64,000 nucleotides of DNA from Candidatus Latescibacterota bacterium. GTDB lineage: Bacteria > Latescibacterota > UBA2968 > UBA8231. Positions 22,285 through 26,879 of this stretch are shown here, piece after piece. Made by a program: the position numbers and the translations under genes. The stretch lies in assembly GCA_965203175.1 (NCBI GenBank), contig OZ241867.1, positions 2,208,001 through 2,272,000 on the forward strand, written 5' to 3'. Each line of letters starts with the position of its first letter. The stretch's first letter is position 1. A model generated the notes under the pieces. That model did not search any database. It had not been told where the DNA came from and saw nothing but the letters and a program-made list of their open reading frames with translations.

Positions 22285-22920
22285 TCACAACTGTTTCCCC
22301 ACCCACAGGGCACCTCGGCGCACCACTTCTTGGAAGGAAGGGTTTTCCAGCACTGCGTTGTCGTGGCCCAAGGCAAAGAAGAACACTCGGCCCCGACCAT
22401 AGGTGTGATGATAGGCCATGACGTGGGTCTCGTCGCGGCCGGGGTCATAGGCGTGTATGAGGTGATGCGAGCGGCTTGGATCGTGCTTGAGGTAGTGCAA
22501 TTCGTCGGTCACGGCAAAGTCTTTGAGGCCGGCGGCAATGGGATGGTCGGAGTCGGAGATGGCGACGGTGAAATCCATGTACGGGCTGTGGCCGTTGAAA
22601 AAGCCGTTGAGCATTTGGTGATAGCCGGCATTGTCGCGGAAGGAAGCGTCTGCGGTGTGCAGGCCGAAGAACCCGCCGCCGCGTTCGATAAAGTGCAAAA
22701 GCCCCTGTTCCTGGGCTTGGGTGAAGAGGCCGACATCGGTGAAGAAGAGGGTGGTGTCGTACGCGGCGAGGCCGTTGGCCATGACCTCGTAGTCGCGCGA
22801 GAAATCGGCCTCGATCTGGGCGTCTTGGTTCAGCAGGTCGGTTAGAAATCGGCCCTGGCCTTCGTGGTCGTGGTAGATGCCTTCGGTGCCGACGAATACT
22901 AATAGTTTAACGGGAGCCAT
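22285..22920 (-). CDS. ThuA-like (class I glutamine amidotransferase fold) domain protein
   Basis: GGGFFGLHTA, TDELHY, GRGRVFFFALGH. Confidence 0.85.
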   Translation of the reverse strand: MAPVKLLVFVGTEGIYHDHEGQGRFLTDLLNQDAQIEADFSRDYEVMANGLAAYDTTLFFTDVGLFTQAQEQGLLHFIERGGGFFGLHTADASFRDNAGYHQMLNGFFNGHSPYMDFTVAISDSDHPIAAGLKDFAVTDELHYLKHDPSRSHHLIHAYDPGRDETHVMAYHHTYGRGRVFFFALGHDNAVLENPSFQEVVRRGALWVGKQL

Positions 22921-22947
22921 GACGGGTTCCTCCTTTTAGTCTTAGGG

Positions 22948-23550
22948 CTAATCGGGAGCGGCCGCGGATTTTTCCCAGGGCCGGATAAAGGATTCAGGCT
23001 CGACGCCCAAGGCGTCTGCCACGCGGTTGATATAGTTGAAAAAGCCGATGATCTGGACGGCGTCGTGGATGCCGCGATCGTCAAAGCCGTGCTGACGCAA
23101 TTGGTCGATGTCCTCAGCGGTTGAGTCATGGGGGCGCTGGGTCAGTTTTTCGGCAAAGACGCATAGGGCATGGTCGGCTGGCGATAGATCGGCACGGCGC
23201 CAGTCCGCAGATAATTGGTGTACCAGCCGATCGGCCGGGGTTCCTTCTTCAATGGCAAAATCGCGAGCGACCTCAGCCCGGAGGTCGTGGGCGTGGGAGC
23301 GTAGTCAGTACACGCAATGGTTCGCGGCCGAAACGACCACGGCCAGCATTTCGCGCTGGCCTCGGCTCAGGGGTGAAGGGCCGTACATGAGGGTCTTGTA
23401 AAAATCCATTGATACCCTCATGGCCCGGGGGTTGGGGCTCATAATGGAGACAATGCCCCAAATGCGCCCGGCCCGAGCGAGGGCGGCTTCGTACTGCTTT
23501 TTGAGTAGGCCGGTGGCCCGTTTTAGGGGAATGATGTCTATATAGGGCAT
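22948..23550 (-). CDS. AhpD/CMD peroxidase-related selenoprotein (CxxU), 200 aa with in-frame UGA at 23305-23307
   Basis: REMLAVVVSAANHCVY-UGA-LRSHAHDL...FAEKLT...IIGFFNYINRVADALGVEPE continues in frame to TAG at 22948. SECIS-like hairpin follows the UGA. Confidence 0.85.
23268..23287 (-). promoter_or_regulatory. Bacterial SECIS-like hairpin
   Basis: CGACCTC-CGGGCT-GAGGTCG begins 17 nt 3' of the in-frame UGA; G-containing apical loop. Confidence 0.65.
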
Positions 23551-23715
23551 TTGCTGATCACCTCTGCGAGGACGTAACTACGCATTTGGCTGCCATGGCA
23601 AAATTTGTGACATTGTTGCGAGTTTTCAGCTTGCAACTGGAGATCACTACCGCGTCGAAAAAGGGACGCAACGCCACCTAGCGCAACAACGCGCCATATA
23701 GAAGGAGCCGTTTCC

Positions 23716-24609
23716 ATGTCCGTTCGCTTTGCCTTCCTCACCGATACTCACCACTACCCCGACGCCCCCGCAGACTACGGCGCTCCCAAGATGCTCACCC
23801 GCAGCCAGGAGGTGCACGACGCGATTCCCCCCGCCCTCAACGCGCAGGCTTTCGACTTTGTCGTCCACGGCGGCGACTTTCTCTGCGGAGGGTCGGCCTT
23901 TGACCTGCCCACCGAGACCTATTTGCGCTCGATTGACGAGGTGGTCACGGCCTTCGCGCGGCTTGAGGCCCCTTTCTACTCGGTCCCCGGCAACCACGAC
24001 TGCGACGCTCAGAGCGGTTCCTTCGATGGTTTTGCCGCCCGTTTTCCCTATCCCGATCCGCTGACCGTCGTCGATGCTGCGCCGCGTCTGCGACTGGCAC
24101 TGGCCCATGTCTTCTACGACTGCGATGTCTTTGAGAAAGGGTCTGGCGTCTGGACCGACGCGCTAGACGAGGCTCTGCGCGCTGCTGCTGCTCAAGCCCT
24201 AGCCGATGGCTGCGCGTTGCTGCTCGTTATGCACACTTGGATTTTGCCCGATTTCGCTTGGGACCGCGGCGTGGTCGCAGGCGCGCCTCGTCTGGTCAAA
24301 ACGCTCGACGAAAGCCCTGCTATCGTCGCTGCTTTCACCGGCCATCGCCACATCAACCGCATCACTGCCTACCGCGACTACCTAGTTGTCGATACGGCCT
24401 GTCTGATCGGCTTTCCCTTGGGGTATCGCAGCGTTGAACTCTCGGACGATGGCTTTTTCAAGACGCGCTTCCACACCCTCGACCTGCCCGATCTGATGCA
24501 AGCTTCCTACGACCGCTCGACGCCCGAGGAGAACTGGGTCTGGGAAGGCCACATCTTCGACCGGGACGTGGATATCCTGTCGCCTCGGCTCAGGGCGCTG
24601 TGGGGTTGA
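23716..24609 (+). CDS. Calcineurin-like metallophosphoesterase (Icc/CpdA-like)
   Basis: TDTH, GGD, GNHD, MH, GHRH motifs. Confidence 0.88.
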   Translation: MSVRFAFLTDTHHYPDAPADYGAPKMLTRSQEVHDAIPPALNAQAFDFVVHGGDFLCGGSAFDLPTETYLRSIDEVVTAFARLEAPFYSVPGNHDCDAQSGSFDGFAARFPYPDPLTVVDAAPRLRLALAHVFYDCDVFEKGSGVWTDALDEALRAAAAQALADGCALLLVMHTWILPDFAWDRGVVAGAPRLVKTLDESPAIVAAFTGHRHINRITAYRDYLVVDTACLIGFPLGYRSVELSDDGFFKTRFHTLDLPDLMQASYDRSTPEENWVWEGHIFDRDVDILSPRLRALWG

Positions 24610-24662: not shown

Positions 24663-26879
24663 TCACTTTCGGCCACCATAGCGGTTTAAGAGCTCGGCTG
24701 TCTCAGTAGCATTGTGTTCCGTCGCAATGTACAGCGGTGTCCGGCCCTCGTCGCTCTCAGCGTTGACCTCGGCTCCTTGGGTCAGCAAGACTTCGGTCGT
24801 TTCAGCCGCGTTGTGTGCTGCCGCCCAGTGTAGCGGAGTCCGGCCATATTGGTCCTTTTCGTTGCTGTTGGCTCCCTGTGTCAGCAAGACTTTGGCCGTT
24901 TCAGCCGCGTTGTTCCACGCCGCCTGGTGCAGTGGTGTCTGGCCATATTGGTCCTTTTCGTTGCTGTTGGCTCCCTGTGTCAGCAAGACTTTGGCCGTTT
25001 CAGCCGCGTTGTTCCACGCCGCCCAGTGTAGCGGAGTCCGGCCCAATGTGTCCTTGGCACAGATCTCGGCTCCTTGCTTCAGTAAGAGTTGGGCTGTTTC
25101 CGTCGCATTTTTTGCTGCTGCCCAGTGCAGTGGTGTCGCCTCCTCGCTGTTCTTGGTGTTGACTTCGGCACCTTGGGTCAGTAACAGTTGGGCTGTCTCA
25201 GTCGCATTGTGATTCGCCGCATTGTGTAGCGGTGTCCGGCCGTTGTTGCCCTTGGCGTTTATCTCAGCTCCTTGCGCGATCAACAATTGGGCGGTTTCGA
25301 TTGCATTTTCCCACGCTGCACTGTGCAGTGGCGTATTGCCAGATTCGTCCTTTTCGTTGCTGTTGGCTCCCTGTGTCAGCAAGACTTTGGCCGTTTCAGC
25401 CGCGTTGTTCCACGCCGCCTGGTGCAGTGGTGTCTGGCCATATTGGTCCTTTTCGTTGCTGTTGGCTCCCTGTGTCAGCAAGACTTTGGCCGTTTCAGCC
25501 GCGTTGTTCCACGCCGCCCAGTGTAGCGGAGTCCGGCCCAATGTGTCCTTGGCACAGATCTCGGCTCCTTGCTTCAGTAAGAGTTGGGCTGTTTCCGTCG
25601 CATTTTTTGCTGCTGCCCAGTGCAGTGGTGTCGCCTCCTCGCTGTTCTTGGTGTTGACTTCGGCACCTTGGGTCAGTAACAGTTGGGCTGTCTCAGTCGC
25701 ATTGTGATTCGCCGCATTGTGTAGCGGTGTCCGGCCGTTGTTGCCCTTGGCGTTTATCTCAGCTCCTTGCGCGATCAACAATTGGGCGGTTTCGATTGCA
25801 TTTTCCCACGCTGCACTGTGCAGTGGCGTATTGCCAGATTCGTCCTTTTCGTTGACGTTGGCTCCCTGTGTCAGCAAGACTTTGGTCGTTTCAGCCGTAT
25901 TGTTCCACGCTGCCCAGTGTAGTGGCGTCAGGCCCAATGTGTCCTTGGCGCAAATCTCGGCTCCTTGCGTCAGCAACAGGTTGGCCGTTTTGTTTGCATT
26001 TTCTGCTGCTGCCCAGTGCAGTGGTGTCGCCTCCCTGCTGTCCTTGGTGTTGACGTCGGCCCCCCATGTTATTAACAGTTGGACCACCGTTTCAGCCGCG
26101 TTGTTTGCTGCCGCCCAGTGTAGCGGTGTCCGGCCCAATGTGTCCTTGGCGTAGATGTCGGCACCTTGGGTCAGTAAGAGCTGGGCTGTTTCGGTTGCAT
26201 TGTTCCACGCCGCAGAATGCAGCGGTGTTGCGCCCGCAGAATGCAGCGGTGTTGCGCTCTGGTCGGTTTTGGCGTTTATCTCAGCACCTTGGGTCAGTAA
26301 GAGCTGGGCTGTTTCGTTCGCATTTTTCTGCGCCGCTTGGTGCAGTGGTGTCGCGCCATATTCGTCCTTTTCGTTGATGTTGGCTCCCTGTGTCAGCAAG
26401 ACTTCGGTCGTTTCAGCCGCGTTGTTCCACGCCGCCCAGTGTAGCGGAGTCCGGCCCGATGTGTCCTTGGCACAGATCTCAGCTCCTTGCGTTAGTAACA
26501 GGTGGGCTGTTTCCGTCGCATTGTTTACTGCTGCCCAGTGCAGAGGTGTCGCCTCCTTGCTGTCCTTGGTGTTGACGTTGGCCCCCCATGTTATTAACAG
26601 TTGGACCGTTTCAGCCGCGTTTTCTGCTACCGCCCAGTGTAGCGGAGTCCGGCCCAATGTGTCCTTGGCATAGATCTCGGCTCCTTGCGTTAGTAACAGG
26701 TGGGCTGTTTCCGTCGCATTGTTTACTGCTGCCCAGTGCAGTGGTGTCGCCTCCTCGCTGTCCTTGGTGTTGACGTCTTGGATATTGGCGAACACAAGGA
26801 AGCCAATGACCAAGAGCACCACTGCGCCCAAGATCTCCAATCGCCGGGCTTTAGTCTTTTTTGGCGGTCCGTTGCTCAT
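24663..26879 (-). CDS. Membrane-anchored ankyrin repeat protein 1 (~21 repeats)
   Basis: Basic N-terminus plus TM segment, GxTPLHxAAxxN repeats, C-cap LLNRYGGRK. Confidence 0.93.
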   Translation of the reverse strand: MSNGPPKKTKARRLEILGAVVLLVIGFLVFANIQDVNTKDSEEATPLHWAAVNNATETAHLLLTQGAEIYAKDTLGRTPLHWAVAENAAETVQLLITWGANVNTKDSKEATPLHWAAVNNATETAHLLLTQGAEICAKDTSGRTPLHWAAWNNAAETTEVLLTQGANINEKDEYGATPLHQAAQKNANETAQLLLTQGAEINAKTDQSATPLHSAGATPLHSAAWNNATETAQLLLTQGADIYAKDTLGRTPLHWAAANNAAETVVQLLITWGADVNTKDSREATPLHWAAAENANKTANLLLTQGAEICAKDTLGLTPLHWAAWNNTAETTKVLLTQGANVNEKDESGNTPLHSAAWENAIETAQLLIAQGAEINAKGNNGRTPLHNAANHNATETAQLLLTQGAEVNTKNSEEATPLHWAAAKNATETAQLLLKQGAEICAKDTLGRTPLHWAAWNNAAETAKVLLTQGANSNEKDQYGQTPLHQAAWNNAAETAKVLLTQGANSNEKDESGNTPLHSAAWENAIETAQLLIAQGAEINAKGNNGRTPLHNAANHNATETAQLLLTQGAEVNTKNSEEATPLHWAAAKNATETAQLLLKQGAEICAKDTLGRTPLHWAAWNNAAETAKVLLTQGANSNEKDQYGQTPLHQAAWNNAAETAKVLLTQGANSNEKDQYGRTPLHWAAAHNAAETTEVLLTQGAEVNAESDEGRTPLYIATEHNATETAELLNRYGGRK
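24853..25854. repeat. Apparently exact 495-bp tandem duplication (5 ankyrin repeats)
   Basis: Sequence at 24853 recurs at 25348 and the protein block is duplicated verbatim. Confidence 0.8.

Follow-up and report, generated by a model that had tools for sequence, protein, structure and literature searches.

An in-frame UGA in a Latescibacterota gene of the AhpD-like family TIGR01926 is predicted to encode selenocysteine

Introduction

On the minus strand of a Latescibacterota contig, an open reading frame (ORF) of 81 codons ends at a UGA, and the same frame remains open for another 118 codons. Does this UGA stop translation, or is it read as selenocysteine (Sec) in the middle of a single gene? 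The locus lies in a stretch of 64,000 nucleotides (contig OZ241867.1 of assembly GCA_965203175.1), and this whole stretch is called the window below. A first-pass annotation of the window had described the locus as a hidden selenoprotein, namely an AhpD-like peroxidase with a CxxU motif and a SECIS-like hairpin.

The same annotation took AhpD-like selenoproteins to be established in bacteria, and the literature agrees. The AhpD-like protein (COG2128, CxxU) entered the literature as a new family of selenoproteins, with 27 members in the Sargasso Sea data and a predicted SECIS (PMC1088965). In the GOS data, 'AhpD-like 1' is represented by 299 Sec sequences and 902 Cys homologues (PMC2398784). 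A table in a 2026 review has the entry 'AhpD-like protein, TIGR01926, CxxU' (PMC13188914), and BSepDB offers a browse page for the AhpD-like family (PMC13326102). A literature search for Latescibacterota selenoproteins, by titles and abstract openings, found no paper on them.

Results

One reading frame with an internal UGA

The complete coding sequence occupies positions 22948..23550 on the minus strand and comprises 200 codons plus TAG when TGA is translated as U. It begins with ATG (23550..23548, minus strand), and a Shine-Dalgarno-like GAGGTGA, read off the sequence, is located 7 nt upstream of it (23558..23564, minus strand). With translation table 11, the ORF at 23550..23305 encodes 81 aa with SAANHCVY as the last residues and stops at TGA, which is codon 82 (23305..23307, minus strand). 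Past the TGA, the same frame reads LRSHAHDL...FNYINRVADALGVEPESFIRPWEKSAAAPD over 118 further codons up to the TAG at 22948..22950 (minus strand). In the orthologues, the frame closes at this same position; the stop codon is TAG in 15 of them and TGA in one. The read-through translation contains the motif C79-V-Y-U82-L-R-S-H86. Cys79 opens the CxxU motif, and its codon (23314..23316, minus strand) is TGC or TGT in all parsed orthologues. The first-pass annotation had reported an 81-aa ORF ending with NHCVY and a UGA at the second Cys of CxxC, and a frame running on with LRSHAHDL to a TAG. Both descriptions were accurate, the TGA being at 23307..23305 and the TAG at 22950..22948 in the direction of transcription.

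The table-11 listing, with its 81-aa ORF ending at the TGA, is in line with a genuine stop, i.e., with a pseudogene or with two small genes of 81 aa and about 118 aa. However, the first table-11 ORF after the TGA begins only at a TTG at 23100, 68 codons further on, and is 50 aa long, which argues against two genes.

The read-through protein is AhpD-like

The gene product matched the NCBIfam profile TIGR01926 ('peroxidase-related enzyme') with 145 bits at a cut-off of 81.8, and the match joined residues 3-186 to positions 2-176 of the 178 in the profile. The AhpD core domain TIGR00778 was also present in the read-through protein according to the profile search. Residues 41-92 matched the Pfam CMD domain PF02627 with 43 bits (gathering score, 23); this match assigns the protein to the superfamily and no further, and it is no evidence of decarboxylase activity. 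Two narrower assignments were rejected. Membership in canonical AhpD (TIGR00777) failed with 23.3 bits at a cut-off of 191.95, with residues 66-101 alone being matched, and membership in AhpD_rel_CFYUT (NF041238) failed with 61.6 bits at an equivalog cut-off of 175, the match covering positions 216-337 of 357.

An AlphaFold2 model of the read-through protein, computed with alignment A1 as input, had a mean pLDDT of 96.1 and nine helices in the all-helical AhpD/CMD fold. The top Foldseek matches were the AhpD-like structures 6k40, 2prr, 3c1l, 2oyo, and 2pfx (TMq, 0.81-0.84), with 6k40 as the best fold match (TM, 0.82/0.88; 33% identity). In the model, residue 82 is located in the first turn of helix 80-98. 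The first-pass annotation had expected homologues to carry Cys at the UGA. Indeed, in sequence alignments U82 pairs with the second Cys of CVYC, CLYC, and CYYC in 6k40, 2oyo, and 3c1l, respectively, and Cys is opposite U82 in the CxxC-type database homologues P0015, P0040, P0052, P0091, and P0107. His86, four residues after U82, is nearly invariant among database homologues. The fold also bears on the question of a genuine stop: neither half alone makes the AhpD fold, and the read-through product forms one domain (pLDDT, 96).

The UGA is conserved, and the codons on both sides of it are constrained

A full-length match with exactly one TGA was found in 16 of 41 genomes, these being the window's own genome and 40 relatives, and a codon-level check placed the TGA at the CxxU codon in 16/16 loci. 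Among 168 genomes of the phylum, 49 had a match at E <= 1e-20, and 44 had a full-length match with exactly one TGA, at identities down to 55%. The prediction of the first-pass annotation that close relatives would keep the UGA was thus borne out. The phylum set provided 50 loci, 45 of which were parsed; TGA was at the CxxU codon in 44 of the 45, and the remaining one (L073) is a Cys form with TGC. The five unparsed loci were read later and showed TGA in L063, L041, and L072 and TGC in L040; L071 (G149, 41% identity, one TGA) was left out because the motif search could not parse it.

The cross-phylum scan comprised 588 relatives, with one genome per species, and the best 80 loci by similarity were examined. 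TGA was at the codon in all 80 (78 loci, and then L089 and L102), in a set that consists of the most similar matches, is skewed to the Sec form for that reason, and shares some genomes with the 168-genome phylum set. According to their record titles, these 80 belong to Latescibacterota, Chloroflexota, Gemmatimonadota, Planctomycetaceae, Gammaproteobacteria, Acidimicrobiia, and Acidobacteriota.

In 13 sequences of equal length, dN/dS was 0.219 upstream of the UGA (codons 1-81) and 0.191 downstream of it (codons 83-200). We conclude that both parts of the gene are under purifying selection.

These data weigh on the possibility of a genuine stop. Public protein catalogues contain dozens of C-terminal fragments of the family (among P0002-P0121) that are 110-120 aa long and begin just after the UGA, as would be expected of two genes, and one relative, G005, does carry a fragmented copy: at G005:C1:4191745-4192253 (L039), the gene is in four out-of-frame pieces. 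Against a genuine stop, a single TGA at the same codon recurs in 44 phylum genomes and in 80/80 of the best loci, and dN/dS downstream of it is as low as upstream. A pseudogene or a pair of small genes is, in our assessment, extremely unlikely. The catalogue fragments also agree with the statement of the first-pass annotation that standard gene callers would split this gene.

Additional copies and a related subfamily were observed in the phylum set. G095 has a second gene copy with two TGA codons (G095:C1:3041786-3042280; L074), and G126 has a partial second copy containing TAG (G126:C2:3747569-3747838). The loci L041 (G026), L072 (G102), and L040 (G028) represent a paralogous AhpD-like subfamily with about 40% identity and the motif C-x-Y-U...HAEFLR. 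In L041 and L072, TGA is at the CxxU codon and is accompanied by a different hairpin, ACGCAGA-GUU-UCUGCGU. In L040, the TGC Cys form from the same genus as L041, this hairpin is almost intact, and its retention suggests a recent Sec-to-Cys switch in that lineage.

The codon recurs in independent assemblies

A TGA in place of TGC or TGT could in principle be due to a sequencing or assembly error, and we found nothing in favor of this explanation. It is opposed by the presence of the same codon in 16/16, 44/45, and 80/80 independent assemblies, the last being the best 80 of 588, and by contigs from public runs, which were compared over positions 22700-23800. The best-matching run, X1, covers all bins but may itself be the source and was not counted as independent; among the differences listed for it, none is at 23305-23307. 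Run X3, from a different study, contributes a contig (record 15) that extends over all of 22700-23800 with 97% identity and 31 differences. Among the 30 of these that are listed, none falls within 23254-23555, which takes in the N-terminal half of the protein, and hence none at the TGA or in the hairpin. The first-pass annotation had named TGC or TGT in reads as a refuting observation, and the X3 contig has no listed difference at 23305-23307. The probability of an error at this codon is negligible.

Fifteen of the 30 listed differences of the X3 contig cluster in 23134-23253, a variable stretch (ARDFAIEEGTPADRLVHQL) right after the SECIS. Contigs from the RNA library X18 cover 22967-23149 and 23363-23615, i.e., regions on either side of the UGA, with 90-95% likeness, and X19 lies outside the gene only; contigs of this kind can show neither transcription nor strand. 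Several runs labelled as sponge metagenomes contain sequence close to the window.

The genome encodes the Sec machinery, and TGA serves as a stop codon

The genes that the first-pass annotation had suggested looking for are all present in the genome: selA (566.5 bits), selB (328.8 bits, in a 637-aa frame), selD (376.1 bits), and the gene for tRNA-Sec (70 bits; anticodon tca; ARAGORN call, tRNA-SeC), each above its cut-off. The selD gene, located at G000:C1:391045-391968 on the plus strand (locus L012, about 1441-2480), contains one in-frame TGA, in the motif ACGGUASKL. Read in this way, selenophosphate synthetase would itself be Sec-encoded, which would make selD a second Sec gene and a second sign of active Sec decoding.

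TGA terminates 16 of the 39 long non-overlapping ORFs in the window, and therefore it is not reassigned in this organism. This observation is relevant to the alternative that the UGA is read through without Sec, either by reassignment of TGA (code 4 or 25) or by a near-cognate tRNA inserting Trp or Cys. The presence of W at this position in many database homologues speaks for such read-through: the public catalogues contain full-length versions of the protein with W at the Sec position, mostly on contigs of about 0.7-2 kb. However, the W-bearing proteins listed come, with the exception of P0011, from contigs of this short length, and we infer that the W most simply reflects the use of code 4 by gene callers as a fallback on such contigs. 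Furthermore, TGA stops not only the 16 window ORFs but also the L038 orthologue; the full Sec machinery is encoded; residue 82 falls on the redox Cys of CxxC, and the chemistry would be lost with Trp; and the hairpin described below is conserved with a SelB-type loop (G-G/U). Read-through without Sec is thus very unlikely. Both catalogue forms, the W version and the C-terminal fragment, look like gene-calling artefacts.

A hairpin downstream of the UGA is conserved with compensatory changes

The first-pass annotation had noted a perfect 7-bp stem (CGACCTC/GAGGTCG) with the loop CGGGCT, beginning 17 nt after the UGA. It was found at 23268..23287 on the minus strand, 17-36 nt downstream of the UGA, and its fold and conservation mark it as a putative bacterial SECIS hairpin. 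The 5' arm CGACCUC (23287..23281) and the 3' arm GAGGUCG (23274..23268) form the stem, and the 6-nt apical loop CGGGCU (23280..23275) starts 24 nt after the UGA; all three elements are on the minus strand. The single-sequence fold also showed a lower CGC/GCG stem, which was excluded from the element because its 3' side is not conserved among relatives.

The bacterial SECIS (bSECIS) rules given in the 2026 review are a loop of 3-9 nt that has a G within its first two positions and then G or U, a stem of 4-16 bp, an MFE <= -7.5, and a spacing of 16-37 nt (PMC13188914). The window hairpin lies within all of these limits, with a loop of 6 nt (C-G-G), a stem of 7 bp, a spacing of 24 nt, and -10.2 kcal/mol for the 20-nt hairpin alone. 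The generic rule is permissive: the Cys form L073, with its TGC codon, folds an 8-bp stem with an 8-nt loop and G at loop position 2, located 27 nt after the TGC (fold read by hand). The 71-nt stretch around the hairpin folded with -16.6 kcal/mol, a z-score of -0.18, and at least as good a fold was obtained in 82 of 200 shuffles. Thus, folding energy by itself gives no sign of a hairpin beyond chance in this G+C-rich sequence. It is on comparison with relatives that the hairpin, together with the TGA, exceeds chance, by its conservation in every parsed orthologue, its compensatory changes, and the codon bias in its loop.

In 77 distinct sequences, 98.7% of the stem cells were paired, compared to 18.6-43.8% in registers slid by 1-3 columns. 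Pair 24:37 was C:G in 68 sequences, U:A in 7, and U:G in 2, and pair 21:40 was C:G in 33, U:G in 29, U:A in 9, and unpaired in 6. Double changes were present in 16 stem cells, and the covariation score was reached by none of 500 shuffles. Mismatches at pair 23:38 occurred in 1/77 sequences in alignment A3 and in 3/40 in A2, and the outermost pair was unpaired in 6/77. This pairing with compensatory changes and the agreement with the bSECIS consensus bear out the SECIS-like character that the hairpin had been given.

The covariation is carried by two pairs. Within the phylum (40 distinct sequences), five of the seven pairs were invariant, and the one compensatory pair came from a single genus; in the wide set, three of the seven stem positions were invariant. 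The conserved peptide DLRAEV could in part be the source of the nucleotide conservation in the hairpin. The change from C:G to U:A corresponds to a synonymous GAC-to-GAT change coupled with Val to Ile (GTC to ATC), and it occurred in loci with record titles of Caldilinea, Planctomycetaceae, Ardenticatenaceae, Anaerolineales, Gammaproteobacteria, and Gemmatimonadetes.

In the loop, C28 and G29 were invariant, and position 30 was G or U only. Position 30 is the wobble position of an Arg codon. Of 78 loci, 47 use CGT for this Arg, 31 use CGG, and none uses CGC or CGA, counts that are inflated by kinship among the loci. In the rest of these genes, CGC is the most frequent Arg codon (501/1,089). 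The bias in the loop runs exactly in the direction of the G[G|U] rule for bacterial SECIS and would fit a constraint at the RNA level.

An Rfam scan of 22900-23600 with E values up to 10 found no bacterial SECIS family and gave two chance matches, v-snoRNA-1 and a lncRNA. The covariance model R1 detected in the window's own genome this site alone, with 60.1 bits, the site being included in the model; the next score was 14.9 bits (E, 0.12). By this search, the genome would contain no further genes with an R1-type SECIS.

The neighborhood of the gene is not conserved

A ThuA-family gene (22285-22920, minus strand) begins 27 nt past the TAG of the selenoprotein gene on the same strand. This neighbor recurs in 1 of 109 related loci, and the pairing is probably a local arrangement, not a functional operon. 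A HAD hydrolase neighbor recurs in 2/109 loci and a metallophosphoesterase neighbor in 13/109, comprising 12 loci of the same phylum (at least 86% identity) and L076 (87%; from a named collection). A conserved operon partner was sought across the 109 loci and none was found, and no ahpC-type partner gene adjoins the gene.

At 24663-26879 (minus strand), a 738-aa protein consisting almost entirely of ankyrin repeats is encoded (15 Ank stretches, 514 bits). Ankyrin-repeat proteins of this kind are unusual in free-living bacteria and typical of host-associated ones.

Discussion

From the sequence comparisons, we consider it highly probable that the locus is one gene and not two, and that it encodes a 200-residue AhpD-like (TIGR01926) thiol/selenol oxidoreductase with a Cys79-x-x-Sec82 center. 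Four agreeing lines point to Sec insertion at UGA82: the conservation of the TGA, the coding constraint, the Sec machinery in the genome, and the lack of reassignment of TGA.

The full-length TIGR01926 match, the AhpD-like fold, and the conserved TGA and hairpin agree with an AhpD-like selenoprotein of the CxxU type, as read in the first-pass annotation; its phrase "hidden selenoprotein" overstated the novelty, as this CxxU family has long been known. The feature is a real but ordinary member of a family that was first described in 2005. With the known AhpD-like CxxU proteins, the window protein has in common the TIGR01926 profile, a CxxU motif in which UGA replaces the codon of the second Cys, and a downstream SECIS with a loop G, and there is no difference in kind. 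Its nearest relatives are titled Latescibacterota and, in some cases, Gemmatimonadota.

Compared to AhpD of Mycobacterium tuberculosis (TIGR00777), the CMD/AhpD core and the CxxCxxxH-type center are common to both proteins, the center having the form C79-x-x-U82-x-x-x-H86 here; in contrast, the window protein scores below the TIGR00777 cut-off and lacks an adjoining ahpC-type gene. In M. tuberculosis AhpD, the second Cys is the nucleophile. The best sequence match of the window protein is DR1765 of Deinococcus radiodurans (PDB 6k40; E, 1.2e-26), which likewise consists of one all-helical domain and has the motif at the corresponding position. DR1765, however, has Cys in its CVYC motif where the window protein has Sec, and therefore it needs no SECIS. 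A DR1765 mutant is sensitive to H2O2, and its complementation needs the CxxC cysteines (Zhao et al. 2020, as cited in PMC8945050).

Based on these conserved parts, decoding may proceed as follows. When the ribosome reaches UGA82, the downstream mRNA hairpin would be bound by the elongation factor SelB, a role suggested by the invariant C-G followed by G or U in the loop. SelB would deliver Sec-tRNA(Sec), Sec would be inserted, and translation would continue to the TAG; the charged tRNA would be supplied through the SelA, SelD, and tRNA-Sec encoded in the genome. By homology, the selenol of U82 would then act as the nucleophile toward peroxide or an oxidised partner peroxidase and would form a selenenylsulfide with Cys79, after which a reductant would restore the selenol/thiol state. 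Because of this proposed U82/Cys79 chemistry, we infer by analogy that the protein may serve in oxidative-stress defence, like its CxxC homologue DR1765.

Like the fdhF-type SECIS of Escherichia coli and the bSECISearch consensus, the element is a hairpin within the coding sequence just 3' of the UGA, with a small loop containing G and then G or U (PMC13188914). In contrast to the fdhF-type SECIS, its sequence is unrelated, family specific, and without an Rfam match. The hairpin is nearly letter-identical across genomes whose labels come from at least six or seven phyla. A bolder reading, which we offer tentatively and regard as rather doubtful, is that GACCUC-CG[G/U]GCN-GAGGUC represents an unusually invariant, family-specific SECIS, that the RNA dictates the peptide DLRAEV, and that gene and SECIS together are a horizontally transferable module accepted by different SelB proteins. 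If this were true, the hairpin could become the basis of a curated bSECIS family, by which many catalogue entries that are split or translated with W could be put right. In either case, the cross-phylum alignment of the hairpin provides a clean case of RNA-level constraint inside a coding sequence, with a loop Arg codon that is never CGC.

The existing knowledge of selenoproteins is not changed by this gene, and the main value of the analysis is the correct annotation, since table-11 callers cut the gene at codon 82. For the organism, the putatively Sec-encoded selD suggests a working Sec system. The correct reading of the gene would add a selenoenzyme to the oxidative-stress repertoire of this uncultured lineage.
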